A stretch of DNA of 64,000 nucleotides, taken from Carcharhinus longimanus (Eukaryota). Below, piece by piece: positions 29,413-57,986 of the stretch. Where the stretch lies: the NCBI GenBank assembly GCA_030264375.1, contig JASCQW010000043.1, positions 37,768,449 through 37,832,448 on the forward strand. The letters are read 5' to 3'. The notes beneath the pieces were generated by a model. The model was not told the DNA's origin. It ran no database searches and worked only from the letters and a program-made list of their open reading frames with translations. Made by a program: the position numbers and the translations under genes. Within the stretch, counting starts at the first letter, position 1. Each line of letters opens with the position of its first letter.

Positions 29413-31848
29413 AAGATTCAAAATAACAACAAGGTTTATTCTAGGAACTGTTGCCTGTACAGAGTAGAAAATAAAAATAAACAGCAGCCTGTGAAATACC
29501 CCAATGCCATCAAATCATGTGACTGGCTCTTAAAACAATCATGCAGCTACTGAAATATATAACATTCTTCCCTTTCACTTTGTTTGCCATTAAAACAAAT
29601 TACTACAATGTTATACATGGGATCAGTATGGTGGCACATTGGTTCGCACTGCTGCCTCACAGCACTAGGGACCCAGCTTCAATCCCTGGCTTGGGTTACT
29701 GTCTGTGCAGAGTCTGCACGTTCTCCAGTTTCCTCCCATGATCTAAAAGACATGCTGGTTAGAAGAATTGGTCATGCTAAATTCTCCCTCTATGTCCCCG
29801 AACAGGCGGTGGAGCGTGGTGACTCGGGGATTTTCACGGCAATTTCAATCCAGTGTTAATGTAAGTCTACTTGTGACACTAATAAATAAACTTAAAATAA
29901 AGGAATAATAATACTCTAGACAGAACTATGCACAGTATGTAAGAAAGTTGAATCGGAGAATGTCTATTCCTCTTTGGTTGTATATGACGATCTAGAATTT
30001 GGCTGCCCTTGAGCCTGGAGGCATGATTTGGGCGTTAAATGGATAATTCTTCTCTTGGAACTAGTTCTGCATCATTCTCATATGGGGTAGTAGCAGAGAG
30101 ACAATCATCAGGCAACTTAAATTCAACTAAGTCTTTCATAGTAATATTCACAACACCAGGAATGAAGGAAGTTGGTGCTTCTGGCAGTGATTCTGATAAA
30201 TCATTTTGAATCTTTGTAATTCATCCTGTATGGATAAGACATTCAGTTGGAATTCTTCATCATATTTCTGGACATTCTTATCTTTATAGTCAAAATTATT
30301 TCCTTCCACGTTGTAAATTTTGCAACCTGTTCTTCTTCTTGAAGAAACCTGGATTCTTCCTCTGAATATTCTTCTCAGGGGAAGCTGGTCCAGCCCAACG
30401 AGCTTTTACAATGTGACCCATTTTGCTACATTTCTTGCATAGATTCTGCTTGCTCCAGCATTCATTTCTCCAGCACAGATCATTTTGGCAGATCTCTGAC
30501 ATGTTTGTTTTGCTGTTTGGCTTCCATAGGCAATTCCCAATTGTGAATCTTCATTCCTCCGTCAAATTGTGAAGCCTCTTTAGCAGCCAATTCCATCAAC
30601 GCTGCGATTTCTGTTGCTGCCTTTAAAATGATTGCATGTACTGTAAGCAATCTTCTTCAGATAGCCTCATTTTGGAGACTACAAATTAGATGACCTCAAG
30701 AGTATCTTCCAAAAACTCACCAAATTCATAAAGTTGTGCAGCCTTTTTACAGCTGCTCCAAACTGAACAAAGCTTTTGCCTTCCACTTCATTCCTTTGAT
30801 GAAACCTGAACTATTCATGATGATCACTGGCTTTATAGAGTAATGTTCTTCAAGGATCCTTATCATGCCACTGTAAGGTTTGGTTCCTGGCTCTGCTGGA
30901 CGAACTAAGTTTCAGATCAAACTGAAGGTTTTACTCCCTATTTTACTGAAAGAAGCTCGTATGAGCAACTCATTTTCAATTTCATTCACTTGTACTGTAT
31001 GCTCTGTATATGAATTCCATGATTCATTTTCTTCATTGAAAGGACACATGATGCCTAATTGACTCGCCATTTCTCTTGCAGACACTAGCCACTTGATACT
31101 GCACAGTATATTATTTTACTTTCTTCCCAGAGCTGCCCGTTTTAGCTTGGAGCCCGTTGACTTGATGTATTTTTTTGCAAACGGCCTCACTGTTACAACA
31201 AAGGATCCCCTTTCTTCAAATATGCTACATAGTGCCTGGGATCTCACCCTTCTCTGTTTGGAAAGAAACCTCCCATTTTAAAACCACACAGAAAGCTTCT
31301 ACCCCTTTTATGCTCACATGGCCTTTCTTCACTGGCACTTTTATCCTGTTACATAGAAACATAGAAGATAGGAGCATTTGGCCCTTTGAGCCTGCTCCAT
31401 CATTCGTTACGATCATGGCTGATCATGCACTTCAATAGCCTAATCCTGCTTTTTCCCCATAACCTTTAATCCCATTCGCTCCAAGTGCTATATCTAGCTG
31501 CCTCTTGGATATATTATTATTGATCTTTCCCAGCCTTCCAATATTAGAAGTGTGGGGACCCACAATTTTTTTTTCTCTATGTAGGAGCTTTTCCTGAGTT
31601 TCTCAAAGAAACACAATCCTGACTCATCGCCAATTTTCTTTTTGTAATGTTTTAGCTATATTAGAGATTATGAGTTTTAAACAAAAATGAAAGATCTGGT
31701 TTGCACATTTAGATTCAAATTATCAACAGCAAAATTTATTCGAGGAGTTCTGGTCTGTACAGAGTAGAAAATGAAACATGTGAAACACTCCAATCAAATC
31801 ATGTGAGCAATTCTTAAAACAATCATGCAACTGCTTAAATATATAACA
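29413..31848 (-). mobile_element. Internally deleted Ty3/Gypsy LTR retrotransposon
   Basis: 5' LTR 31643-31848 (TG..CA), PBS-like TGGCGATGAGTCAGGA, gag remnant (ESWNSY.E, IGSKTF, EEHYS.KP, LMELAAKEA, CKKCSKMGHIV knuckle), PPT GAAAGGGAAGAA, partial 3' LTR 29413-29564. Confidence 0.87.
29622..29895 (+). mobile_element. V-SINE with alternative (Rex1-like) tail
   Basis: HE1 head and V-domain; tail CCGAACAGGCG...TTTTCAC...TACTTGTGACACTAATAAATAAAC. Confidence 0.88.
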
Positions 31849-31914
31849 GCATTTGTCCTATCTGTTGGAAATGCAATGCTGGAATTTCATCAGGGGTTCT
31901 CCAGAATGACTATC

Positions 31915-32357
31915 TATTGATAGCACTGTCACCTGTGAAACACAGGATTCCTGCTTCAAATCCCATGGCCACTCCACGGCCTCAGCACAACAATCAAGTC
32001 TCACACTTCAGTGCGGTCTGGAGAGAATGCTTCACCATTCAGATGAGACATTAAACCATCTGCCTGCTTGAGTGAATGTTAAAGATCCATGGCACTTTTT
32101 CAGAGAAGAGCAGGATATGGAGATATCCCCTGAGTTTTCATCAATTTATACCCCTCAATGAACATCACAAAATAAAACAAACTATCCAGTCATTATTATA
32201 TCGCTGTTGGGGGGAGTTTGCTGTGTGCATACTGACTGCCTCATTTCCTACATTACAGTGGTGACTACACTTCAAAAAAGTACTTAATTAGCAGTAAAGT
32301 GTTTTGAGATGCTCAGTGCCCATAAGAAGCATTACATCAATGCATGTCTTTATTTCC
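31915..32357 (+). mobile_element. DeuSINE (SacSINE1/AmnSINE1-like)
   Basis: CAGATGAGACATTAAAC, TAAAGATCCATGGCACT..GAAGAGCAG, GGGAGTTTGCTGTGTGCA, L2-type tail AATGCATGTCTTT. Confidence 0.8.
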
Positions 32358-32515
32358 TCTTTCTAACTACAGTGGATAACCAGATAGATGCATAATTCAG
32401 GCTTCTACTAAGATTATGGTAGGTGACTGGCAGAGTTTCTGGAGAAATTGTTGAACGTGGGTATTGCAGTGAGGTTCATAACTAAAAAGGACAAGGTCAC
32501 TGATTAAAGACATTC

Positions 32516-33611
32516 TGTTCCCATCCTCCCCGTAACTCCAGGAATTACGAGAACAAAATGCATGTGACATAATGTTTGGCTCAACTTCAGATTCATTAGT
32601 TTATTGAATTCACAAACCCCCGCCCCCCCCCCCCCCAGCACAAACCCTCTTGTGATTTGACCGGAATCAACAGCAATACCTCACAGCACAGACACACATA
32701 AAAGGTTGACTGAAATTTACAAAAGCCCTCATAATACAAACTCCTCTACGATTTGACTGAGATAATCACCAACACAGCTAATCACGACCAGTGAGCCTGG
32801 ATCTGGAGATATCTGGTTTTCATCTTTCTCCCCTTGACTGCAGTGCCCGGGTTCCGATACCATACTCGTTCATGATGATTTATATCATACTATCACGGGC
32901 ACAGATCCAAAGTAATAGAATCACTACACTGCAAAAGGAGGCAATTGGGACAATAGGGTGGGATTTTCCAGCTGCACTTGCCCCAAGGCCGGTAAATCCT
33001 ATCCGAGGTCAACGAACCTTTGCCAGGTCTGTGTCCCACCTGCTACAATTCCTGTGGTGGGCAGGATAGTAAAATTCCGCCCATTGAGTCTATACGTACT
33101 CACTGAAAGAGCCATCTCACCCAGGTCCCCTACCCCGCCCTAGCCCCTAACCCCACAACTTTACCATGGTTAACCCACCTCACCTGCACATCCGTGAGTC
33201 ACCCGATGATTAACATCTCTTTATTTTGGTTAATTCCATGCTCTGGTTTGGACAGCACTGTATAGGTATAGTCAGTTCTTTTGCTGTTAACACAAGAGAA
33301 AGCAAAGTGATTCCCTCCTCATGGTGGGGGACATCTGGGTTAAAGCTTGACTGAGGTGCGAATGCTCCTTCTGTTCCTGGCAGGAACTAATTGTGCCATG
33401 CAACGGCAGTTACCCTGTGCCATTGACAACGATAATGGCCCTCTCAATCTCTTGATGAGTCCACATTACGGTTAGCTTTCTCGGTTACAGTTAATCCTTT
33501 AGTGCCTGTACAATTCTCTTCTGTGTGTGCTTTTGAGCTTTCACTATTTTATATTTTTACAGCTCGGGGTCATGTCCTTCGCTGATCCCGTACTCGCAAA
33601 GGGAATTCACA
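32516..33611 (-). mobile_element. Candidate solo LTR containing a V-SINE fragment and a MITE
   Basis: TG..CA ends (TGTTCCC / GGGAATTCACA), flanks ATTC/ATCC, minus-strand ATATAAA (~32880) and AATAAA (~32602), CpG-retaining. Confidence 0.45.
32915..33195 (-). mobile_element. HE1 V-SINE 3' part, with Harbinger MITE at 32956-33082
   Basis: AGAATCACTACACTGCAAAAGGAGGC tail split by GGGTGGGATTTT...AAAATTCCGCCC (flanks ATA/ATT). Confidence 0.85.
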
Positions 33612-34397
33612 ATCCAAGTGAGTGCAGATAATAATCCTCCCAGCCTGTGATCCATTCTAACTCTAATCACCCCATTCAGCCAGAGTCTTATGCTGCTACT
33701 GACATGGGAAATAAGGCTCGTGTTACTAGGAGGTGAAATGTCAGATTCCAATGATGGGAGGAAAGTAGGGAATTGAGGTTGTAAAGGATAGAAGGTAGAT
33801 CGATGGCAAGCGGTAAGAACCTATTTTTAGTGGACATACATGTTTTGATTACTCATTAAGGCACAATTTCACTGGATTAAGTGGTAATTTGTCTAATTCA
33901 AAGTGGTGTGTAGCAAGGTGAGGTAGTCTTCCTGGTGGAGTTGGACTGAGCAGAAGCTACTTTTCTTTCATGGTGCTTTTTGTGTATTACCACAGAGGAG
34001 GCATTGATGCCTCTTGAGATTGGGTGGTGGTAATGCAAGGGACATGGCTAACAAAGGGAAGGAGGCGGAGGGGGTACTGTCTGTGCAAGGACATCAGGAC
34101 ATGGTTGGTAGCAAGAGAAAGGGGGACAGTGTGGTGTCTGTNNNNNNNNNNAGGGAATCATGGACATGGTTGACAGAGAGAGGTAGAATGGATTGTTGAC
34201 AAACTGTGAGGTCTAGTGGGAACAGGGGAGGAAGGTGGACTATATAGGGAATGCAATATCTGTCGATGGGCAGTGCAGCATGATTGTAGGGAATACCTCA
34301 CCACAAATGTCAGAGACAATGTTGGAGATGGCTGAGGACATCAAGGGATTCTGTTACTCACCTATGTCAGCTATTTCAGAATAACCTCAATTCCTGG

Positions 34398-34753
34398 GGT
34401 GGCACGGTGGCTCAGTGGTGGGGCAGCACGGTGGCAGAATGGTTAGCACTGCTACCTCAACGTGCCAGGGACCTGGGTTTGCTTCCCAGCTTGGGTCACT
34501 CTCTGTGTGGAGTCTGTACGTTCTGCCTGTGTCTGTGTGGAATTCCTCCGGATGCTCCAGTTTCCTCCCACAGTCCAAAGATGTGCAGACTAGGTAGATT
34601 GGCCATGCTAAATTGCACCTTAGTATTGGGGGAACTAGCTAGAGTAAATATAGGGGGATAGGGAGTAATGGGGATAGGGCCTGCATGGGATTGTGGTCGG
34701 TACAGACTTGATGGGCCAAATGGCCTCCTTCTGCACTGTAGGATTCTATGATT
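34398..34753 (+). mobile_element. HE1-type V-SINE
   Basis: Full head, V-domain and GGATTCTATGATTCT tail. Confidence 0.93.
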
Positions 34754-35524
34754 CTGGGGATTGGGAGACAATCCAATGNNNNNNNNNNNNNNNNNNNNNN
34801 NNNNNNNNNNNNNNNNNNNNNNNNNNNNNNNNNNNNNNNNNNNNNNNNNNNNNNNNNNNNNNNNNNNNNNNNNNNNNNGCAGACTTGATGGGCCAAATGG
34901 CCTCCTTCTGCACTGTAGGATTCTATGATTCTGGGGATTGGGAGACAATCCAATGACAATTCAAAACCGATGTCAGTCACTTTAAAAATCACCGGGCCAT
35001 TGTATTCCTATGCAGTCTGTCTGGTCCAGGGCTCCTCTAGCCTCAACTCTCCCTTAGTCAGCTTCTGACCATTCACCTTTACTTTCTGTGTCCCATGCTA
35101 GCTATCACTGTAGCTGATTCCTCACTTGAGGCACCATCTCATTTGGCTTTTAAAACTGCCATCTCTCAAAAATGTCCTCCATTCATTCTCTTATACCATT
35201 TTCTTTCTGACTTACTTTTCTTCTCAAGTCTTTGAACTGCTATATTTCAGAGGCCATCTCTCTCAACACCGCTATTCAAATCCCTCGGGTCTGTTTTCTA
35301 CAAACAATGCAGTCAAAATCACAAGCAACATCCTCTGCTGACTGTGCCAGTGATGTATTAGCCCTCCAAATGCTGCCAGATCCCAGATAATCTGCTTTCC
35401 ACCAAAGCCCGAGTCTGAGCTATACACCAGCCATTGCTTTTCTCTGCACGCTTCATTCTACACGTTGAATCCAAGCTGTTCAACCACATTGCCCACCCTC
35501 AACCTTTGTTTCTTTCTCAGCTAC

Positions 35525-35840
35525 AAGAAAGAAAAGAAAGACTTGCATTTTTATCAACCCTTTCATGGCCATCATGCTTTACAGCAAATGTAGTTTTTTT
35601 TAATGTAGTTACTGCAGTAATGTCGGAAATACAGCTGTTAATTTTCATACAGCAAACTCCCATAAACAGCAACGTGATAATGAGCAGGTAACTGTTTGTA
35701 TTTTTATGATGCTGATTGAGGGATAAATATTGTCTGAGAAGCTGCAGATAACTCCTCTGTTCTTCTTCAAAATAGTGTCAGGGAATCCTTCATGTGCACT
35801 TTGGTTTAATCTCTTGTCTAAAAAATGGAACCCTTGACAG
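35525..35840 (-). mobile_element. DeuSINE 3' part
   Basis: AAAGAAAGACTTGCATTT tail (reverse complement), CAGCAAACTCCCA, GATTGAGGGATAAATATTG. Confidence 0.78.
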
Positions 35841-35854
35841 TGTGATATCATATA

Positions 35855-36357
35855 TCCATTTGCCTGGAAGAGTCCAGCACCAGAAATACTCGAGAAACTT
35901 GACGCCATCCAGGGCAATTCAGCCTACTTGATTGGCATCCCATGCAGCACAATAAATATTTATTCCCCTGACACTGATGCACAGTGGAAGCAGTACATAC
36001 CACTCACATGATGCATTGCAACAAATCACCAAGACCTGTTTGATACCACTTTCCAAACCGGCAACCTCTACCACCTAGAAAACAAGGACAGCAGGGGCAT
36101 CAGAATGCCAGCACTTGCAAGTTCCCCTTCAAGCCACACATAATCCTGACTCTGAAACTTAGCACAGTTTCTTCACTAACGCTGGGTCAAAATCCTGAAA
36201 CTCCCTCCCTAAACAGCACTGTGGGTGCACCTTCGCCACATGTACTGCAACAGCTCAAGAAGACAGCACACCACTACCTTCGTGAGGGCAATTAGGGATG
36301 GGCAATAAATGCTGGCCTAACCAGCGATGCCCACATCACGTGAAAGAGTTTTTTAAA
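35855..36357 (+). mobile_element. L2/CR1-group LINE 3' end
   Basis: Tail GGGCAATTAGGGATGGGCAATAAATGCTGGCCTAACCAGCGATGCCCAC. Confidence 0.87.
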
Positions 36358-36519
36358 AATCCTTCCCACCTGCTGGCATAAAGCTACTGGTGAATGCAAG
36401 TTTTCATGTGAGTATTCACATGGCCAAGCATGGTGCGATGATAGGCATTGAATAAAATCTGAACTAAATTCATGTCCCGTCACCAACAATTATACATAAG
36501 ATGTTTCTGCTGATTAGGC

Positions 36520-36812
36520 AGTCCAGAACCCTAGGGGACATAATTTCAGAATAAGAGGGAAGCCACTTAGGACTGAGATGAGGAGAAATATTGTGAATAT
36601 TTGGAATTCTCTGCTCCAGAGGGCTGTGCAAGCTCAACCATTGAATATGTTTGAAACAGAGACTTACAGATTTCTAAATACCAGTGATGTGAAGAGATAT
36701 GGGGATTGTGTGGGGGAAAAGGATTGAGGTGGATAATCAGCCATGATTGTATTGAATGACGGGGCAGGCTCAATGAGCTGAATGGCCTCTTCCTGTTCCT
36801 TCGCTCCTATGT
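36520..36812 (+). mobile_element. CR1 LINE 3' end
   Basis: CCTAGGGGACATAATTT..TTAGGACTGAGATGAGGAGAAAT..GAATGGCCT.TCCTGTTCCT. Confidence 0.85.
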
Positions 36813-36917
36813 TCCAAAACCTTAAATTAATACCAATTACATGTAAATACCTAAAACACACCATCACAATCACAATCATACTTTTTGAATCATATAGTAC
36901 AATCACGAAAACACATT

Positions 36918-37044
36918 GGCCAGAATTTTATCACCCCGCCCGTCACAGGACTCACAGTGGGCAAGGAGAGGAACATGGAAAGGTCCATTGACCTCGGGTG
37001 GAATTTTATGGTTTTGGGATGAGCAAAGCTGTAAAATCCCACCC
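36918..37044. mobile_element. Harbinger-type MITE
   Basis: GGCCAGAATTTT...AAAATCCCACCC; flanks ATT/ATA. Confidence 0.83.
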
Positions 37045-37586
37045 ATAATGTACAAATATGTACACATTTAATATCAGTAAAAAGAGGAATGAGCAGAAAG
37101 GTTGCTCTACCTTGTTCTGTAAACCTGGAAATCAAGCCTAAAAAATCACAGTACTCCACAATAAAAATTAGTTTAATTTATTCAATCAGTAGAAATCAGC
37201 AGCTCTCAATTTATTGTGCATGATGCAGGATAAAAATCTATATCCTCTGACTCATCATAAGCAATGCTGTGAAAGATTTATTAATTGTCAAAAAGAAGTG
37301 TTGCATCTANNNNNNNNNNACTTTGCATTCATTACCCTTATGAAGTGTTTATCTCATGAAAAAAATCTCTGATTGTCTCAAAACAGATCAAAAACACTTA
37401 CTTCACTCTTTCTGGATACCAGTAGTTTCCATGCCACCTCCGCTGTCCCCTTCATCACACACACACTGAAGCAAGGGCTTCATCGCCCTCAACAGCATTT
37501 GCCGCAGCTCTCCTGTCTCGGTACACCAGTGTCTTTGGAACTAATTTTCGATATGTATCCCATGTTCATTTACTTTTAGAGTCATA

Positions 37587-37885
37587 AGGTGAGCACAGTG
37601 GCACAGTGGTTAGCATTGCTGCCTCACAGCGCCAGGGACCTGGATTCCCAGCTTGGGTCACTGTCTGTGCGGAGTCTGCATGTTCTCCCTGTGTCTGCGT
37701 GGGATCCCTCCGAGTGCTCTGGATTCCCCCCACAGTCCAAAGATGTGCAGGTTAGGTGGATTGACCATGGTAAATTCCCCTTCAGTGTACGCAAACACGC
37801 CCCAGCGTGTGGTGACTAGGAGATGTTCACAGTAACTTCATTGCAGTGTTAATGTAAGTCTACTTGTGACTAATAAATAAACTTT
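37587..37885 (+). mobile_element. V-SINE with alternative (Rex1-like) tail
   Basis: HE1 head/V-domain; TTCACAGTAACTTCATTGCAGTGTTAATGTAAGTCTACTTGTGACTAATAAATAAAC. Confidence 0.9.
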
Positions 37886-38509
37886 AAAAACATTAGATAT
37901 TAAGAACAAAACAGAGACAATACAACAATGTATTGTGGAAAATGAAAATCAGCAAATAGTTACTTATTTTGTGAATATCACTTCCAAAAGAGAATATCCA
38001 CGAATGCACATGGATTATAAATATGAATTTTAGTCAGCAAAAAATAAAGGACTATAAAATCTTTCTTGATACTGAAGATGAAGAGATCAATATTAAAGTC
38101 TAAGGTATGCATTACACATGTAGTTTTATAATGAATAAGTGTAAAACCATCCTCCAAACAGCCATGTGCAGAATTAAGAAAAGTAAGAGCTTAATGAGCA
38201 GATTAAAGTACTTATACCAGCAAGAACAATTGTAGTCTTTCATTTTTAGTTCTTATCTGGTTCAAATTAAGTGTAAAGGTTACTGAAGGTCACAAGTGGT
38301 AGTTTAAGTAACAAGCAAATTCCTACCCTGGCATCATAAAAATTTAAAAACTACTTAGAAAGGAACACTCTTAACCAAGATCATTAAGATAAAATTATTG
38401 CTCCGTGCATTTTTTTCATCACTACAGGAATGTACAAATGTTTTTACAAGTTAATGGTGAGCCTAACAGCGAAAATAGATAAAAGCTATCCATCCAGGTT
38501 CCTGTATGA

Positions 38510-38745
38510 TTGCTGCACTGTTGGAGGTGCTGTCTTTTAGATGAGATATTAAAATTGAGTTCAAACCTGCTTGCTCAGGTGGATGCAAAAGGACCCTTGC
38601 CACACTTCAAAGAAGAGCCATGGGAGTTATCCTCGAGTCCTGGTTAATATTTTAAGAAAACGGATTGTTCGCTCACTATCCGATTTCTATTTGTGGACGT
38701 TTGCTGTGTTTATATTGGCTGCCCCATTTCCTGCATTCCGATGTA
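38510..38745 (+). mobile_element. DeuSINE fragment
   Basis: GCTGCACTGTTGGAGGTGCTGTCTTTTAGATGAGAT, AAGAAGAGC. Confidence 0.7.
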
Positions 38746-38934
38746 GTCTCCCCACTTAAAAATCCACCAGTGAGAGGGGGTATCAGAAGTCTGGCCTTGC
38801 TCAAAGAATGTCAACATTGATTTATGAATCTGAATTTGTGTCTAACTAATCTATTTAAATATTTTGAGGAAATAACTGCATGATGGGTAGGAGAATGTCT
38901 CGAGATTTTCATAGAATCATAGAATCCTTCTTTT

Positions 38935-39137
38935 TATTTGATTTTGATTTGATTTATTATTGTCACATGCATTAGTATGCAGTGAAAAGTATTGTTTTTT
39001 GCAGACTTACAGACAAAGCATACTGTCCATACAGAAAGAAACAAGAGAATGCAGAATGTAGTGTTACAGTCATAGCTAGGGTGTAGAGAAAGATCAACTT
39101 AGTATGAGGTAGGTCCATTCAAAAGTCTGATGGCAGC
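38935..39137 (-). mobile_element. Rex1 LINE 3' end, inserted in the tail of a minus-strand HE1 SINE whose head lies at 39511-39600
   Basis: Homologous to 25640-25835 (AAIRLLNGPT; TGTGACAATAATAAATCAAATC tail); preceded by the HE1 tail CATAGAATCATAGAATCC; gap follows. Confidence 0.85.
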
Positions 39138-39624
39138 NNNNNNNNNNNNNNNNNNNNNNNNNNNNNNNNNNNNNNNNNNNNNNNNNNNNNNNNNNNNNNN
39201 NNNNNNNNNNNNNNNNNNNNNNNNNNNNNNNNNNNNNNNNNNNNNNNNNNNNNNNNNNNNNNNNNNNNNNNNNNNNNNNNNNNNNNNNNNNNNNNNNNNN
39301 NNNNNNNNNNNNNNNNNNNNNNNNNNNNNNNNNNNNNNNNNNNNNNNNNNNNNNNNNNNNNNNNNNNNNNNNNNNNNNNNNNNNNNNNNNNNNNNNNNNN
39401 NNNNNNNNNNNNNNNNNNNNNNNNNNNNNNNNNNNNNNNNNNNNNNNNNNNNNNNNNNNNNNNNNNNNNNNNNNNNNNNNNNNNNNNNNNNNNNNNNNNN
39501 NNNNNNNNNNCCACACAACCAGTGACCCAAGCCGGGAATCAAACCCGGTCCCTGGTGCTGTGAGGCAGCAGTGCTAACCACTGTGCCACCGTGCTGCCCC
39601 TCCCCCCTCCAACCATATGAAGTG

Positions 39625-40078
39625 CCGAAGAGCATTTGGGAACGTTCCACGCACAAGATTATGAGCAAAAATGAACGTACATGGGAACTGGCTGAGAGTA
39701 ATTGATCGAGGGAAGGAGACAGAGAAAAGGGATGAAGAGAATTTTCTCTGTTTAGCAGGTATGAAGGTGTGTTTCCTAGAGGTGTATATTTGGGTTTTAT
39801 CTTTTCACCATATATATTAAAAACATATGAAGAAACCAAAAGTATACTGAAATTTGCAGGTGACACTAAATTAGGAGGCACGGTGGGTTATGTCGATGGA
39901 AGCAGAAGTTCGCAAAGCGACGTAGACGAATCTTTTATCAAGATTAAGACTGATAAATTTTTGTTGGTTAAGGATATCAGGGGAAGAAAGCTGATAACTG
40001 GAGTAGAGATGTAAACAGAAATGATATAATTGAATGACAAACAGGCTTGAGGGGCTGAGTGGCAGTCTCCTGTTCCTC
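39625..40078 (+). mobile_element. CR1 RT fragment and tail
   Basis: ILKFAGDTKLGG (CR1 RT motif FADDTK); GGGCTGAGTGGC tail. Confidence 0.8.
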
Positions 40079-40736: not shown

Positions 40737-40955
40737 TTGGGAAGAGTTACCAAACAAAGAGATCTAAAGGTACATGTTCATAGCTCCTTAAAAGTGGAGT
40801 CACAGGTGCACAGAGTGGTGAAGAAGGCATTCAGCACGTTTGGTTTCGTTGGTCAGAACATTGTATACAGGAGTTGGGACGTCTTGTTGAAGTTGTACAA
40901 GACATTGGTAAGGCCACATTTGGAATACTGTGTACAGTTCTGGTCACCCTATTAT
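40737..40955 (+). mobile_element. CR1 LINE fragment
   Basis: QRDL.VHVHSSLKV..QV.RVVKKA..LYKTLVRPHLEYCVQFWSP. Confidence 0.92.
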
Positions 40956-41056
40956 ANNNNNNNNNNNNNNNNNNNNNNNNNNNNNNNNNNNNNNNNNNNN
41001 NNNNNNNNNNNNNNNNNNNNNNNNNNNNNNNNNNNNNNNNNNNNNNNNNNNNNNNN

Positions 41057-41197: not shown

Positions 41198-44100
41198 CCA
41201 TGTGTGCAGTTAATGGAACCCTGTACCATGGGAAGCCAGAAATTGTTGCAAATCATGGAAAACTTGATGTAACTATGTGCCTTATTGAAACAGGAATTGT
41301 TGAATTTCCTTATACATTTATGAATAGGGGATTACATATTCCATTGAGGCCTCCAGTGGAGTCCTGGAATGAGTCATTAGTAATAGATGGCCTCCCCACT
41401 TAAGATGCCAAATGCCTCCATGGAATTAGCCTCTCTTCCTCAGCTTCTGGGTCCTTCTGGGGCCCCACCAGCCCATTTTCCTCAAGGCAAGGCTCTACTC
41501 TTAACCCTCCTCGACCTTCTCCAGTTCTATCATAGCCATCAAGAAGGCAGACTCCTGCCTGCATTATGAACTCCCTGTTTCTGTGGAAAAATAGATTAGA
41601 GACACAACTGTACATTACCCTGCAATGATTAACTCCAATTGTTAAGCTAGGAAGTCATTGTGAAATCTTTGCCTGCCCTCATGCCATCCCCATCCCAGGT
41701 TGATCCTTGTAGCTGAAATATATCCTGAAGGTAGCTGAGATTTCCTCGCTATCACCTCTTCCCCTCCCCTACATCCCAGACATGACAGCACATTCACAAA
41801 ATGCATTGGACCTGGGTGTTTGCAGTCACGTGCTATCAATGTCAGAACACTGTCCAGCTGCCTCTATTTGACTAGAGAGAGAGACCAGCTTGCCACTAAT
41901 TTAATGACTGCAAACTTTATGCCTTGTTATCATTGACTATCCCAACTACAATGTGTAAGCTTGTAGGCTACATGTTGCGTATGCGCTGCAGCCGTGTTCC
42001 CTCCATTTTTTGATTTCTCTTCGTGTTTCACATTCTTCCGTGAGGGACAATAATAAATCAGACCAATTCAAATATTTTTCCAAGCTCTATTGTATTCTCA
42101 CAAGAATTTGCACCATGAGTGGAGATAATCAAATCTTTCACTGGACATTTGACTCATCCTAACATTTCTCAAGTGAGCCTTTCTCTGCATATCCCGAATT
42201 GGTAATTCCCCTTCAATTGGCCCAGAAGTGCTGTAGCCAACTCCTTCCACAAGTCCTCAGAATCCTTCAGTGGTGACATTTTCCCCCAAGTTACTTTTCT
42301 CTTGCATCATTGCATCTGGCTTTTGAGATGGTGCTATTCCAATTCTACTTCAACCTCTCCAGCTATCATCCACGTGCTCTTATTCTCCTCAATGCTCACC
42401 ATGTCCAAATTTCCATTCCTCTGATCACTTTCCTGCTTCCCCCTTTAACTCCAGGGCTCCATAGACATTGTCAATATTCCTATCCAAGCCCTGAACTAGC
42501 TCCTGTTGATGACCCCATGCCTCAGGTCGACCTCAGCCCTCCCCATCTTGAGGCCCTATGCACAGTGACCTATAGAAAAGCCCCCTCTTATTTACCAGTT
42601 TCACATTTACAGGTTATTGAAGCCTCCCCTGACAGTGACAGTGCCACTCCTACCCAGTAATAAACCATCAAGTGTGTGAAGAAGGACTGACCACACCCTG
42701 AATAGCATGCTATGCATGACCCACACTGCACAGCTAGGCCTTCCCCCTCCCTGGACTGGGACTAAGACAAGCATGCCAAGCATAGCATGGTCAGCACAGC
42801 CCCAAGATTGCCTTCCATGCTGCACCCACAACATGGTCTCCATAGCCCCAAGGCTGCCTTTGCATTCTGGCCCTGATAATGTGGTCTGCCCTTGTCCAGG
42901 ACTGACTCATACTTCTCTCTCTCCAGTTCCTTTAACCACCTCCTCCCAGTCGTATGTTTTTGTCCATCTCTATCTACTGGGCTCCAGTCACCTCCTCTNN
43001 NNNNNNNNNNNNNNNNNNNNNNNNNNNNNNNNNNNNNNNNNNNNNNNNNNNNNNNNNNNNNNNNNNNNNNNNNNNNNNNNNNNNNNNNNNNNNNNNNNTC
43101 TCCCCCTTCCCTCCCTGCTGGCCTTACCTGACAGTAAGCACCTTGGTGCAGAGTTAGAGCATCTACGAGATAGGACAGCAACTCAGTGAAAGATAGGCAA
43201 ATGCTATGTGTACAAACCTCAAAGTCATGAGCGAAGTGAAGGCCATCAGGTGCATGCCACTTATATACGGCTGTGAATCAGCTGGTGTAATTGTCTGCTG
43301 GCGGGGAAATTAGATTTGGAGTATGGGCGTGACTCCGACAAGCTGATGTTTTTAATGAGAATTCGTAAGATACAAAGAGATACAAAATGTGGTTCCTGAC
43401 ATGGAGCAGCAGGAAACTCGACCACCAAGAAAGTCAGGAGTGGAAAATTACACTTACTTCCTGCCAGAAGAAAACTGACTTTTGCCATCATGCCAAATTT
43501 TGTGCCATTGCCTGTCACAATCTCCGCCATTGGTGAGATGGAAAATTCTACCGTATCACTCAGTTTGCTTTGCTGTTTAAGTGAATCATGTCCAATCTGC
43601 ACTTCAACTCCATTCTTCAGATTTTGCTTCATATCCCTTGATATCCTTGCGCAGCAAACATTTATCTATCCCAGCCTTGAAGGCTTCAATTCCCTTATGC
43701 CCCTTGTTCTTGATTTCTCGCCACATGAAACAGTTTATCTATAATTACCCTATCAAATCATTTTAATGTTTTAAAAATCCCAATTACATCATCCCTCCAT
43801 CTTCTAAACTCAAGCAAAAATGGGCCAACCTGTCCCCACGCGTTAAACCTCTAAGTCCTGCTGATCACAGTGCCTATGCCTTATATCCTAACTTTGTCCC
43901 CTGTAACCCAACTAACCTCTAACCCAATCCACCTCTGCTACGCCATGCCCTGATCTAATGCCAAAGTTTGCTGCATGCTTCTCATAGGGTAGTAAGTGTG
44001 GAAGGGTATCTGACCCTTTGGAATGCGGCATATATTTGCAGGTCACTGGAATCCAGAATAGCACTGTGACATAGACTTGAAAGAGTTAATGGTATTAGTG

Positions 44101-45760: not shown

Positions 45761-45775
45761 TCATAATGACTTTCT

Positions 45776-46293: not shown

Positions 46294-46319
46294 TTGGATT
46301 CCTGGAGGGGTTCCACATT

Positions 46320-49300: not shown

Positions 49301-49496
49301 ATGAAACTGTATCTGGAGTACTATACATAGTTTTAGTCTCTTGAGGAAGGATGCAAATGCATTGGAGGTAGTTCAGAGAAGGTTCACTAGATTGATTCCA
49401 GGGATGAAAGTCGTGTCTTATGAAGAGGGATTGAACAGTTTAAGACTATACTTGCTGGAGTTTAGGAGAATAAGAGGAGATCTAATCGAGGTATTT
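46320..49496 (+). mobile_element. Long CR1 LINE (ORF1 zinc finger/coiled coil, gap, ORF2 endonuclease-RT), degraded
   Basis: HICSK..LKQLWLRVNELECEL (ORF1); CLNA..INEL, GGVALL.KEG, MRDFN, SDH, FQKAFDK, SGAPQG, IAKFSADSKIG, RGDLIEV. Confidence 0.9.
46850..47145 (-). mobile_element. SINE family B inserted in CR1
   Basis: TTTATTGCCCATCCCT, CATTAGTGAACCAGATGGG, GGATTTGAAGCC (reverse-complement B box). Confidence 0.87.
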
Positions 49497-50885
49497 GGCC
49501 TCTACAACTAATTGGGCATGTTTCTTTTGCTAGAATCTTTGTAAATCCATCATACACTTTGCCCACTTCTGCTACTGAAGGCAAAATGCTCATCAACTTA
49601 AGTTGCTCTTAGTTAAATTGCTCATTTGGTTATTTGATTCTTGATTTGATTTGATATATTATTGTCACATGTATTAACATAGAGTGAAAAGTATTGATTC
49701 TTGCACGCTATATAGACANNNNNNNNNNNNNNNNNNNNNNNNNNNNNNNNNNNNNNNNNNNNNNNNNNNNNNNNNNNNNNNNNNNNNNNNNNNNNNNNNN
49801 NNNNNNNNNNNNNNNNNNCATAGAGAAGGAAAGGAGAGAGTGCAGAATGGAGTGTTACAGTCATAGCTAGGGTGTAGAGAAAGATCAACTTAATGTCAGG
49901 TAGATCTATTCAAAGTCTGGTGGCAGTAGGGAAGAAGCTGTTCTTCAGTTGGTTGGCATGTGTCCTCAGACATTTGCATCTTCTTCCTGATGGAAGAAGT
50001 TGGAAGGAGAATGTCTGGGTGTGTGGGGTCTTTAAGTATGCTGACTGCTTTGCAGAGGCAGCAGGAAGTGTAGGCGGAGTCAATGGATTGGAGGCTGATT
50101 TGCATGATGGATTGGGCTACATTCATGACTTTTTGTAGTTCCTTTCGCTCTTGGGCAGAGCGGGAGCCATACCAAGCTGTGATACAACCAGAAAGAATGC
50201 TTTCTGTGGTGCATCTGTAAACGTTAGTGAGAGTCTTAACAGACATGCCAAATTTCCTTAGTCTTCTAAGAAATTTGGACTGCCAGTCCACAGTGCTTGA
50301 TTTTTACAGGAAGGCTGGGTCTTGGGCCAGACCCGAAGTGTTCTGTAGCCGGATGGCTAACAACTACATTTCTGCAAACCATGATGGGAAAATCAGCCAA
50401 CATTACACAACATGAAGTCTGTGAAACAGCTTGTTTTTCCAAGCAAGTGCGATAAGATGTACTCAACATGAAATTGCTGCAGTTGCTAAGGTAAGTAAAG
50501 AGAATAAGCTAGCATTGAGCAAAATGGGTAACAGGTTATCCGTGTATGTGGTTAAAGAACTTTCTCAACGAGAATAACTGGATGAACACAGAAGGTTTGG
50601 AACTTTCGCAGCAATGGCCTGCGGGACCCACCATCGTGAAGACCGTCCTGCATCTGGGACTCAGTGAAGACAACCCATCAAAAGGAGGCTGATCACCTCA
50701 CCCTGCAATAGGTATTATTAAGTCCAAGCCCACAGTCTTGTGATTTATTGTAACAAGTAATCAGTGTTTTAATAAGTGAAATAAAGACCAGCTGAATATT
50801 TATCAAGTACTTTAAACATTAATAAAGCGTGCTCTGCATGAAATATCTCATGTCTGTCTGTCATGCCATCGTTTGAGGGTCAACA
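49497..50885 (+). mobile_element. Possible LTR remnant interrupted by Rex1
   Basis: Ends AATAAA (50821)...GAGGGTCAACA; weak left terminus TTGGCCTCT at the CR1 break point; no clean TSD. Confidence 0.3.
49636..50271 (-). mobile_element. Rex1 LINE 3' end
   Basis: FLRRLRKFGMSVKTLTNVYRCTTESILSGCITAWYGS..KDPTHP; tail TACATGTGACAATAAT..(CAAAT)n. Confidence 0.92.
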
Positions 50886-51417
50886 ATAGAACTTGAAATC
50901 AAATCTTATCTTTTTGATTTGCCCTGTCCCCTACTTAAAAGTAATCCATTCCCCCAGTGCAAATTTTTTGAAGTCCGATAGCACTGGGTAGATTATTTAA
51001 AATATGCACTGCACTGAGAGGTTCAAAGCAGCATAAATAACGGAAAGCTTCATGTCACATTTACAGTTTAGGAGCTAATTAAGTATTAATATTCAACTCC
51101 TTATCATGTGCATATACTAAGCAGCTGCATGTTGGACAATTTTGCACAAACATATCTCTGAGAAATGTAATTGTTGAAATAGAATTCAAATTGACACAGA
51201 GAATGGTGAAACATTGGTACATATTAACATATTATGCAGTCTACTTACTTAATGGGACACCATACATGACAATCGGCAAACATTCTTTTCAAGTTTCCCC
51301 CACAGCGGATTGTGAATAGTTTCAAATTCTCATTTTCCCAAAAAGGAAAATCCTTCTAGATTTCAGTTGAACATTTCATTCAGACAAATGCTGGTTCCTG
51401 CCACTGAGTTACAGTTT

Positions 51418-51522
51418 AACATTTATTTATTAGTGTCAAATGTAGGCTTACATTAACACTGCAATGAAGTTACTGTGAAAACCTCCTAGTTGCCACACTC
51501 TGAAGCCTGTTCGTGTATATTG
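51418..51522 (-). mobile_element. Alternative-tail V-SINE 3' end (rest in gap)
   Basis: TTTATTTATTAGTGTCAAATGTAGGCTTACATTAACACTGCAATGAAGTTACTGTGAAAA. Confidence 0.85.
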
Positions 51523-51749
51523 NNNNNNNNNNNNNNNNNNNNNNNNNNNNNNNNNNNNNNNNNNNNNNNNNNNNNNNNNNNNNNNNNNNNNNNNNNNNNN
51601 NNNNNNNNNNNNNNNNNNNNNNNNNNNNNNNNNNNNNNNNNNNNNNNNNNNNNNNNNNNNNNNNNNNNNNNNNNNNNNNNNNNNNNNNNNNNNNNNNNNN
51701 NNNNNNNNNNNNNNNNNNNNNNAAAGGAATAGAACATATGCTAAAATGG

Positions 51750-51988
51750 ATAAAAGCAAAATACTGTGAGTGCGGGAATCTGAAACAAAAACAGAAAATG
51801 CTGGAAAATCTCAGCAGGTCTGACAGCATCTATGAGGAGAGAATAGAGCCAATGTTTTGAGTCTAGATAACCCTTCGTCAGTGACAGAGTCAGACAAAGG
51901 GTCATCTAGACTTGAAACATTGGCTCTATTCTCTCCTCATAGATGCTGTCAGGCCTGCTGAGATTTTCCAGCGTTTTCTGTTTTTGTA
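51750..51988. mobile_element. Penelope-like inverted terminal palindrome with two decayed hammerhead-like cores
   Basis: 97-bp arms 51785-51881 and 51891-51987 (about 90/97 identical), 9-bp spacer; CTGACGA..GAAA-type motif on each strand. Confidence 0.75.
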
Positions 51989-52592
51989 TTAAAATGGGGT
52001 TGCTTGCCTTCCGACTCAGTGCTCCCCTTCCGATGTGGTATTCACGATCCCGCACCATTGTAATTATTGCTGTTATTTCCATGATGCATAGATCTCAGAG
52101 TAGAACAAATGTGTTTCAACTCTTAGATCGATTTCATAATTAACAGAGCGACTGAGAAAAATAAGATTTGAAATGGTTTTCTACAACTCAGTGGATAACA
52201 ATTGGCAGTGACATACTTTCAGTTGGACAATCTGAATGGGATCAACAAATGGAGAAAGGAGGAAACAGGTGATACAGTGACATTGATTCAACAGCAGTGA
52301 CTTAACATATTAATAACATTATGTCAAAAAGATTTAATAAAACTATCTGGACATGCAGTGAATACTATCAATAAAGCTGACGGTTTTAATTGGAATTATA
52401 CAATAGGAATATAGTTAAAGGAAGAGGACAAAGTAATCATCCATCTCTTTCATTTTTTAAATTGGAAATGCTATTATAACTTATTTGCCAATTCTAAATT
52501 ACCAACACAAATCATGTCTCAGAACAGCCTGGAGGGCTCCATTTCTGGTATATTTAAGGAGAATATCAATTACTCTTAGAATTGTTTTTACA

Positions 52593-52918
52593 GGGGCAGC
52601 ACGGTACCACAGTAGTTAGCATTGCTGCCTCACAATGGCAGGGACCCGGGTTCGATTCCAGACTTGGGTCACTGCCTGTGTAGAAATTGCATGTTCTCCC
52701 CCTGTCGACGTGGGTTTCCTCCTGGTGCTCTGGTTTCCTCCCACAGTCCAAAGATGTGTGAGTTATGTTGATTGGCCATGCTTAATTGACCCCAGTCTCA
52801 GGGGATTAGCAGGGTAAATATGTGGGGTTACAAGAATAGGGCCTAGGTGGGATTGATTTTGACGCAGACTTGATGGGCTGAATGAGTTCCTTCTGCACTG
52901 TGGGGATTCTATTCTATG
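52593..52918 (+). mobile_element. HE1-type V-SINE
   Basis: Full head, V-domain and tail. Confidence 0.93.
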
Positions 52919-54607
52919 ACAGCACTGGTTGGGTTATTTGGACTGCTGGTGTGCAGTAATTGAGCCATATGGGATGTCTGGGTCCTGGAACTGAGAGTGA
53001 TGATTTCAGAAATTAATTTGATGAGTCAGTGAGTGGGTGTTGACCAGGGCTTTTTTTGACAAATACTGTTAGTTTCTGTTTGGTTTGGTGTTTATATCGC
53101 TAATATAGTAAGATGGGCCAGAGAACAAGGCCAGAGACCAGGGAGCTGAAACTGCATGGGGAGAAGACAAGAGGAGGCCAGCTCACCAGAAGCCTTACCC
53201 CACTGCATTTGTGCTGGCTCAGAAACTCTTACCTGTGATTCACCAGGGAGCCAAGTGCAAAGAAGTTCTGCTTTACCTGGGAGCTGTCGCAGAGATCCGA
53301 CACCTGCTGCAACCAAGGGCAAGATCATGTACAAACTTGCCTGTGGCCGTCAAAGTCAAAGATGTTTGTGCTTCCAGATCATTCCAGTCTGCGGCGGGTA
53401 GAATAATTACCAACTAGCTGTGAAGTCTGTATTCACCAGGTAATGGCTGGGCTCTTTGCCAAAGCATTGACTTTATATCCTTGCCCAAGGATACTGTAAA
53501 ACAGCAAGACAAGGCTCCGGACTGGGATTCCAGGGTTCACTGATGTATCATTGACCGCAGACACATAGCCTTGCATAAATTAGTAAAGAGCCTCGCATCA
53601 ACAGGAATGGGAATGCATATTACTGAAGAACTAGCAAAAATGTACAGTGCATCATTCAGGCTTATGTAAACTTTTGGCTGCCACGATTCCTTCATCTTGC
53701 TCTAGGTTGGCTGCTTGAAGGAAAAAGACTATCCTTTCCAGGGTAAGCTAATTGCATTTCCAAGAAATCCGGGCATTTATGTCGTGTGCACTCTGTGCGA
53801 TGCTATGATTCAAATCCTGGTAGAGTGGACCATAGCAATCATGCAACCATACTCCTGCTGTGTAGAAAAATCTGTTTTGCTGCAGCCTAGACGTCTCTCA
53901 GACACTAGGCCCAACATTATTGTGTGAAGTGCTACATTTCATTTCCTTCTCACTCACGGGGCTGGTGAGGAGATTTCAGAAAGGTAAAGCATTAGAAATG
54001 TATCTCACTGTTAATCGAAACAACAAATCTCTGTTTTATGAACAAGCTTCAAATGTGAAGAATAACTTGTTGGCCTACATTCTCGTCACTGTATTTTATC
54101 GCAGATTTCGTGAGGTATCTGACATTAATCGCTCAGTGATTGAAGGACCAAAAGGCAAACCTACTCACACAGATTCTTGAAAGGTGTTTGAAAGCAGTTT
54201 CTTCATAACATTGGTGCAGTTATTTCCTCAGCAAGGAGGATTTGCAACAATTTATTTTCTTTCTATTTGGACGGTTTGGATCATTTTTTTCCACATCAAT
54301 GATATAGCAAATGCGAATAAAGAAAGTAAAAATTGGTGTTATGTTTGTTGAGAATTCTTGCCAATTCTCTGAACTAGCTTTCTGAAGCATGGTTAAAAAT
54401 TAGGAGAACAGGTCAGTAGATTTTCTGAAAGCTTTGTTGAAGGCCAAGCATTAAAAACTCACGTGGAATCATCCCACTGAGAAAGATAATGGGAAAATGG
54501 TTAACTTCAAATTAGATAAAATTAGTGACCTTAAAGACGAGGAAGATGTCAGTGTAATTACCACAAGTTAATCACACATGACAGAGTCCTTTGTCTCAGA
54601 GACTAGT

Positions 54608-54952
54608 TAGCACAGTGGTTAGCACTACTGCCTCACAGTTCCAGAGACCCGGGTTCAATTCAAGCCTTAGGTAACTGTCTGTGTGGAGTTTACACATTCT
54701 CCCCATGTCTGCGTGGGTTTCCTCCAGGTGCACTGGTTTCCTCCCACACTCCAAAGGTGTGCAGGTTAAGTTGATTGGCCATGCTCAATTGCCCCTTAGT
54801 ATCTCAAGATGTGTCAGCTGGATGGATTAGCTGTGGCAAATGTGAAATTACAGGGATAGGTAGGGTAGAGGGCCTGAGTGGGATGCTCTGTCAGAGAGTT
54901 GGTGAAGACTTGATGGGCTGAATGGCCTCTTCTGCAATGTAAGGATTCTATG
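54608..54952 (+). mobile_element. HE1-type V-SINE
   Basis: Full head, V-domain and GGATTCTATGA tail. Confidence 0.92.
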
Positions 54953-55661
54953 ATTAGATGTAATGGCCAGTGGCAGGTTTTACTGGTGGGAGGAAAGTAT
55001 CCAAGAAGTGGATGGAGCACAGGAAGTATATGATACTTTAAACACATTGGGCTGGATTTTCATGCGGGATCGGGGAGCTAACAATTGGATGAATTCTGGG
55101 TCCTAACCCTGCACCTGAGCTGCATTGACATTACAACATCACTTTTAAATACAAATGGCCTACTTAGCCATGAGATGACCTCAGCATCCATAGGAGGCAC
55201 CAAGCACCTGAAGAGGGTGGGGGTTGCCTGCTTGGTGCCATGTTTGGGGCTGCTGTTGCCTTGTCCATTTTTGCAGTGACCTCAGAAGACCAGGAGGTTG
55301 AAAGAGGCCATGCACATCACTTGTTGGTGTTAGATGGAGCGTCAAAACAACTGCAGCGAAAATTACCAGGGCCCTGTGACAAACCATAAGACCATAAAAT
55401 ATAAGAGCAGAATAAGGCCATTCAGCCTATTGAGTCTACAATACCATTCAATTGTGGCTGATAGGTTTCTCAATCACATTCTCCCACCTTTTCCCCAAAT
55501 CTTTGATCCCCTTAAACACAGCAGCTATGCAGTGACACACCCAAGTCTGTTCAGGCTCAGGCTCACCAAAACAGATAGAAAACTTTCATAAGTCGGACTC
55601 TGGCCTGTGGGCCACATGACGGGTGACCGTACTTTAGGATCATTGTTTTCTGATGCACAAT

Positions 55662-55759
55662 TTTGAAAATCTCAGCAGGTCTTACAGCGTCTGGGAAGAT
55701 AGGATTGAGCCACCATTTTGTGACATGATGACCCTTCGTTGTGTTCTGACGAAGAGTCA
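55662..55759. mobile_element. Penelope-like palindrome, second copy, truncated by a gap
   Basis: GAAAATCTCAGCAGGTC..ACAGC..ATGACCCTTCGT-spacer-CTGACGAAGAGTCA. Confidence 0.65.
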
Positions 55760-55945
55760 NNNNNNNNNNNNNNNNNNNNNNNNNNNNNNNNNNNNNNNNN
55801 NNNNNNNNNNNNNNNNNNNNNNNNNNNNNNNNNNNNNNNNNNNNNNNNNNNNNNNNNNNNNNNNNNNNNNNNNNNNNNNNNNNNNNNNNNNNNNNNNNNN
55901 NNNNNNNNNNNNNNNNNNNNNNNNNNNNNNNNNNNNNNNNNNNNN

Positions 55946-56126
55946 TCCTCCCACAGTCCAAAGATGTGCAGGTTAGGTTGATTGGCCATGTTAAATTGCC
56001 CCTTAGTGTCAGGGGGATTTGCAGGGTAAATAAGTAGGGTTACAGGAATAGGGGCTGGGAGGGATTGTGGTCAGTGCAGACTTGATGGGATGAGTGGCCT
56101 CCTTCTGCACTGAAGGGATTCTATGA
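55946..56126 (+). mobile_element. HE1 V-SINE 3' part
   Basis: CCCACAGTCCAAAGATGTGCAGG...GGGATTCTATGA. Confidence 0.9.
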
Positions 56127-57573
56127 TATGGACAGCAACTCAGGTTGGAATTCTTATGCTGGTCACTCCTTCATACTTCCCCGACAATGAATCTGCTGTC
56201 ACAACCGCTCTTGGGAATTGCATCCACTCCCATGAACTAATCACCTCCATCCAAAATAATTATCTAAAACCCCACATCATTGGCATGAATGAACTAGTTA
56301 ACTTTCTTCTACTGATCATTATCTTCTTCTCCAACAGTTGAGATATGGAGATTCCTACAGGTGGCACTAATGCAGCAATTAAAAAAATGCAGCAAGCAAT
56401 TGCCACAAAGTATTTGAGGAACCTCCGCAGCAGCAAAAATGTACGAAGAAAATAGTTCTTAAATGTTGCGTTACTTTTCTTAATGTGCAGTTCCAATGAA
56501 CTTATACAACTGATTCTCTAACTGGACACACTTTATTCATGGATATGAAATGACTGAGCATTAACATGGATGAATGCTAAGGTAAGGGGTAAAAGCAAGA
56601 CCACCCGTCCAGTGTTTTTAATATTTAAAGAAGCTTTTCTCTGTTTCAGCCAGCTCTCTACTCCTGTTTCTGGCACTTCTCGAAATATGTGTGATACACC
56701 ATGTAGTGGAAGAGTTATCATGCTAGCAGTTTGAATAAACCAGAGCACAAAATCTGCCTTTTTGTTGAGCGCAGTTGAAATATTTTGTTGACAATAATAA
56801 CCAGAGGATCATTCTATGTTGAGTCACGTCTGCTTAGAAAGTTAAATTAAATGGATTGCAGACACAATATGTTATTGAGTTAGTCTGAAATCTGTTTTTC
56901 TTCAGCAGAAATCATTGTTGGCACAAAATATAAATTTGGAAATCATATTTGAGTAATTCTGTCTTTTAATTTACCCACCTTTGATGAAAATATAGTGATG
57001 GAGCTCCTACTAAACACTTTGACTATTTTGCGCAGGCAAGCAATAGAGCTGAAGATATTAGGGTGCCCACTTTCCTGAATGTGATGGGGGGGCACGGAAT
57101 CATTTAATCTGTGAAGATTAGTGCCATCTGAGAAACCAGGCATTAAAACGTATGAACTGATCATCGATATTTTGCAAGCAAATTTTCCAGCAAAGTCTTT
57201 GATGCTTGAGAGCACTTTAGATTCCACAAAGGGAACCAAGAAGTGGGGGAGTCAAGTGTGCAATTCATGCTTGTTTTTAAAAGATCTTCAGAATAATATG
57301 CATTTGGAGATGTGCTGAATGACATTTTTCGGACAGTCTGTAGTATGCGCAGTGACACAATGTTTGCTGACCAAGAATAACCTTGTTCTAAAAAAGGCCA
57401 TGAAGGTTGCTGTTTCGCTAGAACTAGCTGCAAAAAAAGCTTAGCAATCGAGTTTGCACATCCAAACAGACAAAATGGCAGCTGAGTTGACACCCAAGAA
57501 CCTTAAAATTCATATATATCGCTGGTGTGAAAAGCCGAGACATTCTGCAGCTGAATGCTGGTATAAAGGCATG

Positions 57574-57691
57574 AGCCAGAATTTTAACAGTCTGCCCACC
57601 ACCGGAATTGTGGGGAGGGGCCTTGGAAAGGTCCATTGACCTCGGGCGGGATTTTACGGTTTTGGGACAACAAGGCTGTAAAATTCTACCT
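57574..57691. mobile_element. Harbinger-type MITE in Gypsy gag
   Basis: AGCCAGAATTTT..TTGACCTCGGGCGGGATTTTAC..AAAATTCTACC. Confidence 0.8.
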
Positions 57692-57986
57692 TTTTTTTAA
57701 GTTTATTTATTAGTGTCACAAGTAGGCTTACATTAACTCTACAATGAAGTTACTGTGAAAATCCCCTAGTCACCACACTGTGGCGCCTGGTCAGGTACAC
57801 TGAGGGAGAATTTAGCATGGCTAATGCTCCTAACCAGCACATCTTCCAGACTTTGGAAGGAAACTGGAACATCCAGAGAAAACCCATGCAGACACGGGGA
57901 GAATGTGCAAACTCCACACAGAAAGTGACCCAAGCTAGAAATCAAACACACATGCCTGGCGCTATGAGGCAGCAGTGCTAAGCACA
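57692..57986 (-). mobile_element. V-SINE with alternative (Rex1-like) tail
   Basis: Complete reverse-complement copy, including TTTTCACAGTA..TACTTGTGACACTAATAAATAAAC. Confidence 0.92.

Follow-up and report, generated by a model that had tools for sequence, protein, structure and literature searches.

We analysed a 64,000-nucleotide stretch of the Carcharhinus longimanus genome (assembly GCA_030264375.1, contig JASCQW010000043.1, positions 37,768,449 to 37,832,448), hereafter the window, for short interspersed elements (SINEs) of the V-SINE type whose 3' tail resembles that of a Rex1-type long interspersed element (LINE). The original prediction had placed such SINEs at 29622, 37587 and 57692 and a further tail at 51418, and all four were located, the rest of the copy at 51418 lying in an N gap. 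The copy at 29624-29897 (+) consisted of a tRNA-like head, a V body with an internal deletion, a piece matching the 5' terminus of the Rex1 LINE (29805-29824) and a Rex1-type tail (29831-29887) with a mutated stem arm. A full-length copy was found at 37592-37890 (+), with a decayed 5'-terminal piece at 37798-37817 and the tail at 37824-37878, and a near full-length copy at 57693-57985 (-), with the corresponding piece at 57768-57787 and a tail whose outer arms were exact at 57705-57761. The fourth copy (51415-51522, -) retained only the 3' part of the SINE, its head being lost in the gap, with the 5' piece at 51488-51507 and the tail at 51425-51481. The Rex1 5' piece was therefore present in 4/4 of the headed or gap-cut copies. 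We also observed a tail-only copy at 59352-59412 (-), which had been overlooked previously and is probably a 5'-truncated SINE; its upstream sequence was not shared with other copies, and we rejected it as evidence of a second family. The tail motif as originally written was exact in the 57692 copy and in the consensus of 26 copies, but not in the other three, which read TTTTCACGGCA (29622), TGTTCACAGTA (37587) and TACATTTGACA (51418). As a separate observation, the tail opened with four T residues (57758-57761, -, and 37824-37827, +), a possible polymerase III stop; this run was intact in most copies and broken by A in 27/158 and by G in 20/158, counts that were inflated by targeted searches.

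The three Rex1-type LINE ends of the original prediction were likewise located in the window. These were a 3' fragment at 25640-26214 (-), which contained the C-terminal open reading frame (ORF), 3' untranslated region (UTR), hairpin and 5-nucleotide repeats and was inserted in a CR1-type LINE, a 3' end at 38938-39137 (-) and a 3' fragment at 49641-50273 (-). An internal fragment spanning the endonuclease region was present at 13278-14331 (-). The LINE frame contained RVT_1 and PF09004. Its protein relatives were single-ORF endonuclease-reverse transcriptase (RT) proteins of fish of approximately 970 residues with 50-58% identity, none of which was named Rex1; the closest named relative was from Mustelus, with 83% identity. 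The distance between the Rex1 primer sites encoding YSSAFNT and QRLYFLR was 556 and 559 bases in copies L105 and L238, and one report places these RT primer sites approximately 550 bases apart and describes a Rex1 3' UTR followed by 5-7-nucleotide tandem repeats (PMC4635592); the repeats here were 5-base TCAAA units. In six copies the reading frame opened at the 5' end, which fits the absence of ORF1 from Rex1 as given in the accessible part of PMC13343379. Judged by domains, primer spacing, 3' repeats and ORF position, the LINE is likely of Rex1 type. No second Rex1 family was found among the 150 scored matches listed in each of two protein searches, which are lower bounds.

Some further features of this LINE were noted. 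Its 5' region before the endonuclease (the first ~870 bases in L411-L420) exceeded that of teleost homologues by ~660 bases, and the ATG that opened the frame lay among the first ten bases. One near full-length copy (L411) was flanked by a ~28-base direct repeat (at ~70-100 and ~3850-3880), possibly a long target-site duplication; eight other copies that we inspected showed no such repeat. A SINE head at 39511-39594 (-) and the Rex1 3' end at 38938-39137 (-) lay on the same strand with only a 373-base N gap between them, and may be two insertions or one chimera. A weak Rex1-end-like match at 42025-42063 (+; E 0.15), with no upstream ORF match, was an old copy or chance.

To describe the SINE family, we used a sample not chosen for the tail, which comprised the window and 49 further stretches (504,686 bases) of the 2.68-Gb genome. 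This sample held 138 SINE heads of this type, of which 85 carried a CR1-type tail, 34 carried the new tail and 19 were unclassified, mostly at gaps or truncated. The 39 tail matches in the sample, two of which were perhaps not SINE tails, correspond roughly to 200,000 copies genome-wide, and 31 3' ends of the Rex1-type LINE correspond, again roughly, to 165,000. The tail of the Rex-tailed SINE was also abundant, with the same variants, in four public runs of other organisms, each from a different study and labelled as a different organism. The family occupied more than 100,000 contigs in each run, and compensatory variants of the tail were not found in them. Copies were dispersed, non-coding and 5'-truncated, with a tandem-repeat 3' end. 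The order of modules was head, V body, Rex1 5' piece, six to seven unrelated bases, Rex1 3' piece and terminal repeats of 5-7 bases. In one subfamily (L010, L013, L016 and L052-L070; 1/39 in the unbiased sample), the V body lacked its final ~25 bases while the Rex1 5' piece was kept, and an extra T often lengthened the Rex1-type stem.

The consensus of 26 full Rex-tailed copies differed from that of 54 CR1-tailed copies at 12 positions and one gap over 202 bases, and the two diverged after the V body. This agreed with the earlier claim that an HE1-type head and V domain were kept while the CR1-derived tail was replaced. The SINE consensus contained A- and B-box-like motifs, which we take to be those of the SINE head, and we presume that the name HE1 applies to this SINE type; Rfam gave no match on the 37587 copy. 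For the V domain, the reverse primer of BivaV-SINE2 (PMC4824008 supplement) matched both consensuses at 19/20 positions, a partial test confined to the primer. The Rex-type tail lacked the CR1-type stem that 85 of the 138 heads carry, and the element is therefore a V-SINE, but not canonical HE1. Head alleles sorted with the type of tail: scores were +1 to +11 for one type and -12 to +1 for the other, a scoring that was partly circular, as the sites were defined on the same copies, although four non-CpG sites were nearly fixed. Since head haplotypes segregated with tail type, we regard the Rex-tailed copies as one separate lineage after one fusion, with no free exchange, and the tails do not appear to be freely interchangeable as originally proposed.

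We then compared the SINE with the 5' terminus of the LINE, which was reached by walking upstream from the endonuclease fragment of the window. The 5' end was sharp in approximately 20 of 25 loci, and hundreds of contigs in the four public runs broke off within five bases. Three single copies (L411, L414 and L416) joined this start to the endonuclease, RT and tail over ~3.7-4.4 kb, with collinear matches to a 969-residue homologue. The 35 bases between the V body and the tail of the SINE matched the LINE at 18/20 positions, at position 10 of 3758. None of 1500 dinucleotide shuffles reached 18 anywhere on either strand, and three reached 17. In addition, three CpG sites coincided between 18 LINE starts and 158 SINE copies, and one of the differences was a CpG transition. 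The spacer also matched an internal part of Rex1 (18/24 with a gap; 13/2000 shuffles, tested on a 936-base consensus), less strongly than it matched the terminus, and this internal match was not retained. By alignment, the final ~95 bases of the SINE correspond to two parts of the Rex1-type LINE of this genome, ~27 bases at its start and ~60 bases at its end. Short LINE copies of the same composition were also present: 9 of 20 fetched 5'-end loci (L412, L422-L427, L429 and L430) were internally deleted, start-plus-end Rex1 copies of ~210-870 bases with different break points, a proportion obtained with a query that favours short copies.

At the 3' side, the last 62 bases of the SINE aligned to the LINE end with a score of 41.3, which 3/5000 shuffles reached, while the CR1-type tail scored 22.6 against the same end (28/5000). 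Against real copies, the SINE tail had a median score of 39.3 with 26 Rex1 ends, compared with 17.7 with 48 CR1-type ends, some of which were SINE ends. A family-blind pattern gave 3040 matches compared with 55 in the control, and the 100 matches listed contained 77 Rex1-type and 23 SINE-type ends by eye, with no third family. A covariance model built solely from 59 Rex1 ends included four of the five SINE tails of the window among its six weak matches (E 0.4-6.7). The main difference lay in the loop, where the SINE has 26 bases and the LINE has six. This 26-base insert resembled decayed copies of the 5' arm and loop of the hairpin (68/5000 and 192/5000 shuffles, the loop variant having been chosen afterwards), and the resemblance is suggestive of an origin from such copies. 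With matches at both ends, equal age and no better donor found, the derivation of the SINE 3' part from Rex1 was supported.

Stringent LINEs recognise a stem-loop at the 3' end of the RNA that they copy, and we examined whether the two hairpins had the relationship described originally. For the LINE, a hairpin of nine pairs with one bulge and a four-base loop was predicted (pair probabilities 0.87-1.0, z -2.6, 17/1000 shuffles). Subfamily variation in 60 ungapped ends from 100 anchored LINE ends affected 3/4 loop positions and 0/18 stem positions, which is compatible with a constrained stem. Covariation was not detected in the 59 Rex1 ends (60-114 of 500 shuffles reached the observed measures), a set of dead copies that gives little power. 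The T-A pair of the LINE and the A-T pair of the SINE were a real difference between the consensuses. However, the A-T pair of the SINE is a single event, and we estimate that two changes would yield a complementary pair in roughly one case out of 45. The further T-A to C-G swap in the Rex1 copy at 38963-38985 was present in the sequence but is attributable to chance, as the partner was G in 6, counted by eye, of the 100 C-ends listed of 1398 and in 4/56 T-ends. The compensatory changes thus did not stand as evidence. A shared 8-bp stem was predicted for the SINE tail folded alone (outer pairs 0.81-0.88), but it was not distinctive against shuffles (z -0.8, 219/1000). Folding the tail together with the 35 bases before it, or within the whole SINE, lowered the outer pairs to 0.00-0.01, and folding from the V end gave 0.61-0.76; in four natural copies, the predicted probability of the Rex1-type hairpin was 0.18, 0.34, 0.44 and 1.0.

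All SINE and LINE copies were old and dead. The median Kimura two-parameter distance to the consensus, with CpG sites masked, was 0.104 for the Rex-tailed SINE (n = 26) and 0.106 for Rex1 (n = 31; p = 0.68), and the comparison of age profiles suggested in the original prediction therefore gave equal ages. The CR1-tailed SINE had a value of 0.156 over the whole element, which is inflated because it is a mix of subfamilies. With heads only, the values were 0.108 for Rex-tailed and 0.131 for CR1-tailed copies (p = 0.057).

Taken together, we consider it probable, at roughly 0.8, that a single fusion joined a V-SINE head to a bipartite remnant of Rex1 and that the product was then copied by the Rex1 protein, in line with the anatomy, abundance and age observed here. 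An HE1-type head and V body would have been joined to an internally deleted start-plus-end Rex1 copy by a template switch, as in Kojima's model. The fusion would then have been transcribed by RNA polymerase III from its A/B-box head, and the Rex1 endonuclease/reverse transcriptase would have bound the 3' end of the SINE, primed reverse transcription at the target and so copied the SINE in trans. The features recognised may be those common to SINE and LINE, namely the lower arms of the stem and the A-rich sequence that follows, and not the loop, which varies among Rex1 subfamilies.

Several results weigh against this reading. A LINE with the exact SINE tail, the Rex1 subfamily that the original prediction suggested searching for, was not found: none occurred among the 100 matches listed of 1195 in a short-loop search, all of which were SINE deletions by eye, in 35 loci of the 537 matches lacking the G-run, in 20/20 matches with unusual sequence before the spacer, or in 25 loci of the 223 matches with a different loop. 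There was also no sign of a Rex1 subfamily with the A-T pair, since 15,401 ends had T-A, 346 and 221 had the single changes and nine had both, compared with 5.0 expected (p = 0.07). A minimal junction without the SINE head was not found among 21 matches at 20 loci, of which 19 were SINE copies and one was unrelated. SINE and LINE share a short, AT-rich stretch of tail (~11 + 21 bases), the individual covariance-model matches were weak, with one weak SINE-tail match in a second 100-kb set, and the terminal repeats differ, being TCAAA units in the LINE and CTTTAAA-like units in the SINE. For the SINE consensus, the favoured prediction is a longer hairpin that joins 5' piece to 3' arm (-21.2 kcal/mol), and in view of this competing fold a single stem common to SINE and LINE was not supported as certain. 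Target-site duplications, taken as matches of eight or more bases, gave no signature separating the two types (4/73 Rex-tailed and 5/62 CR1-tailed copies). Lastly, the clade of the LINE was assigned by features rather than on a reference-named tree, and mobilisation by the Rex1 protein, although likely, is drawn from sequence and ages.

The lack of an exact donor and the differences in tail and terminal repeat could be explained if both pieces came from an older or lost Rex1 family with a long loop and an A-T pair, the present family having mobilised the SINE by cross-recognition or not at all; other sharks do carry diverged Rex1 elements (58% identity). We consider this quite unlikely. A search with a diverged shark Rex1 protein revealed no closer family here (best 69%), the 5' piece is identical to the present family at 18/20 positions, the ages coincide, and the 26-base insert, at 68 and 192 of 5000 shuffles, looks like the decayed arm and loop of the present hairpin.

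The predicted fold bears on a further explanation, in which a SINE with captured Rex1 pieces was copied by another LINE (CR1/Zenon, L2 or L1) through a feature other than the tail. The long hairpin of 5' piece and 3' arm could be what was recognised: folding predictions for the consensus give it as the optimum, and the changes that create it are specific to the SINE. The A-to-T change in the 3' arm is paired there as well and therefore need not be compensatory. The head-only ages further indicated that CR1-group LINEs were active at overlapping times. However, this tail has no CR1-type stem, and SINE ends stop at the Rex1-like terminus. Additionally, the outer helix of the long hairpin depends on two bases that are missing from one variant, which accounts for 19 of the 51 copies classified; one copy of this variant is predicted to fold into the Rex1-type hairpin. 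We regard copying by another LINE as very unlikely. That the similarities are chance between AT-rich and CpG-rich motifs, with a tail of other origin, is highly implausible, for although each match is short and the support from structure is weak, the two independent matches fall at opposite ends of a single 3.75-kb element, in the expected order and on the expected strand (3/5000 and 0/1500 shuffles).

If the fusion to Rex1 and copying by its protein are correct, a SINE that kept ~27 + ~32 shared bases and tolerated a 20-base expansion of the loop would indicate candidate determinants, and its variants would serve as ready mutants for the choice of RNA by Rex1. Rex1 would be added as a V-SINE partner and as a donor of both SINE ends, extending a model stated for RTE and Vingi, and two lineages with one head would coexist on two LINE clades in one genome. 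The general picture is unchanged, as tail swapping was already known. A possible extension, which we hold to be doubtful, is that Rex1 is a further clade building SINEs from start-plus-end copies and that the ~27 5' bases are a retained cis-element, acting in binding or in 5' junction formation, which in the SINE forms new pairs with the 3' arm and so provides a fold that can switch. In that case, the ~95-base cassette would naturally outline the smallest set of features that Rex1 recognises.

Some other features were also recorded. A near-perfect inverted repeat of ~200 bases (91%) was present in the window at 51785-51987, with a partial match at 55665-55739. An identical 76-base duplicate at 34703-34778 and 34880-34955 spanned an N gap and is probably an assembly overlap. 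A 1860-residue "open frame" was an artefact of an N gap, and a Pfam search of a short window ORF gave no match.

The literature searched, which did not extend to subscription journals, Repbase, Dfam, SINEBase or the supplements of PMC5786205, contained no account of a shark V-SINE with a Rex1 tail or of a bipartite SINE derived from Rex1. Within that scope, the Rex1-partnered V-SINE and its bipartite Rex1 source appear to be new, while V-SINE tail swaps and a SINE partnered with Rex1 are already in print. Stem-loop-based stringent 3' recognition by LINEs is described in the available text of PMC3472496; for Rex1 it was not shown in the literature searched, including the accessible part of PMC6274825. 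The HE1 V-SINE of sharks and rays is paired with HER1 in the table of PMC3747384. HE1 is like the CR1-tailed SINE here and has the same head and V body as the Rex-tailed lineage, which differs in its Rex1 5' and 3' pieces after the V body and in its separate head haplotype. According to the same table, SINE2-5_NV of the sea anemone shares its 3' end with Rex1-24_NV. By description, it is alike in being a tRNA SINE with the 3' end of a Rex1 LINE, but it is not a vertebrate element, is not listed there as a V-SINE and is given without mention of a 5' piece. Tail exchange between LINE clades is established in the V superfamily: the frog SINE2-1_XT partners L2 (PMC3747384) and bivalve V-SINEs partner CR1-Zenon and Nimb (PMC11481361, PMC4824008), Rex1 not being among the partners listed in the available texts. 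Tail exchange is also reported for chondrichthyan SINEs in the available text of PMC5499810.

The closest parallel is with the bipartite-LINE SINEs WALLSI2, SINE2-1_ACar, CoeSINE4 and Bov-tA (Kojima 2018, PMC5786205). As presented in the main text of that study, they resemble the Rex-tailed SINE in combining a tRNA head, a conserved body and 5' and 3' LINE pieces, and in coexisting with start-plus-end LINE deletions. Only RTE and Vingi are named there as 5' donors, and RTE, Ingi, Vingi and R2 as makers of ORF-less bipartite copies, with "rex1" occurring 0 times in that text. In contrast, the SINE studied here has a Rex1-type donor and a V domain as its body, and its 5' piece comes from the outermost end of the LINE and is very short, at ~27 bases compared with 36-220 in the table of that study.

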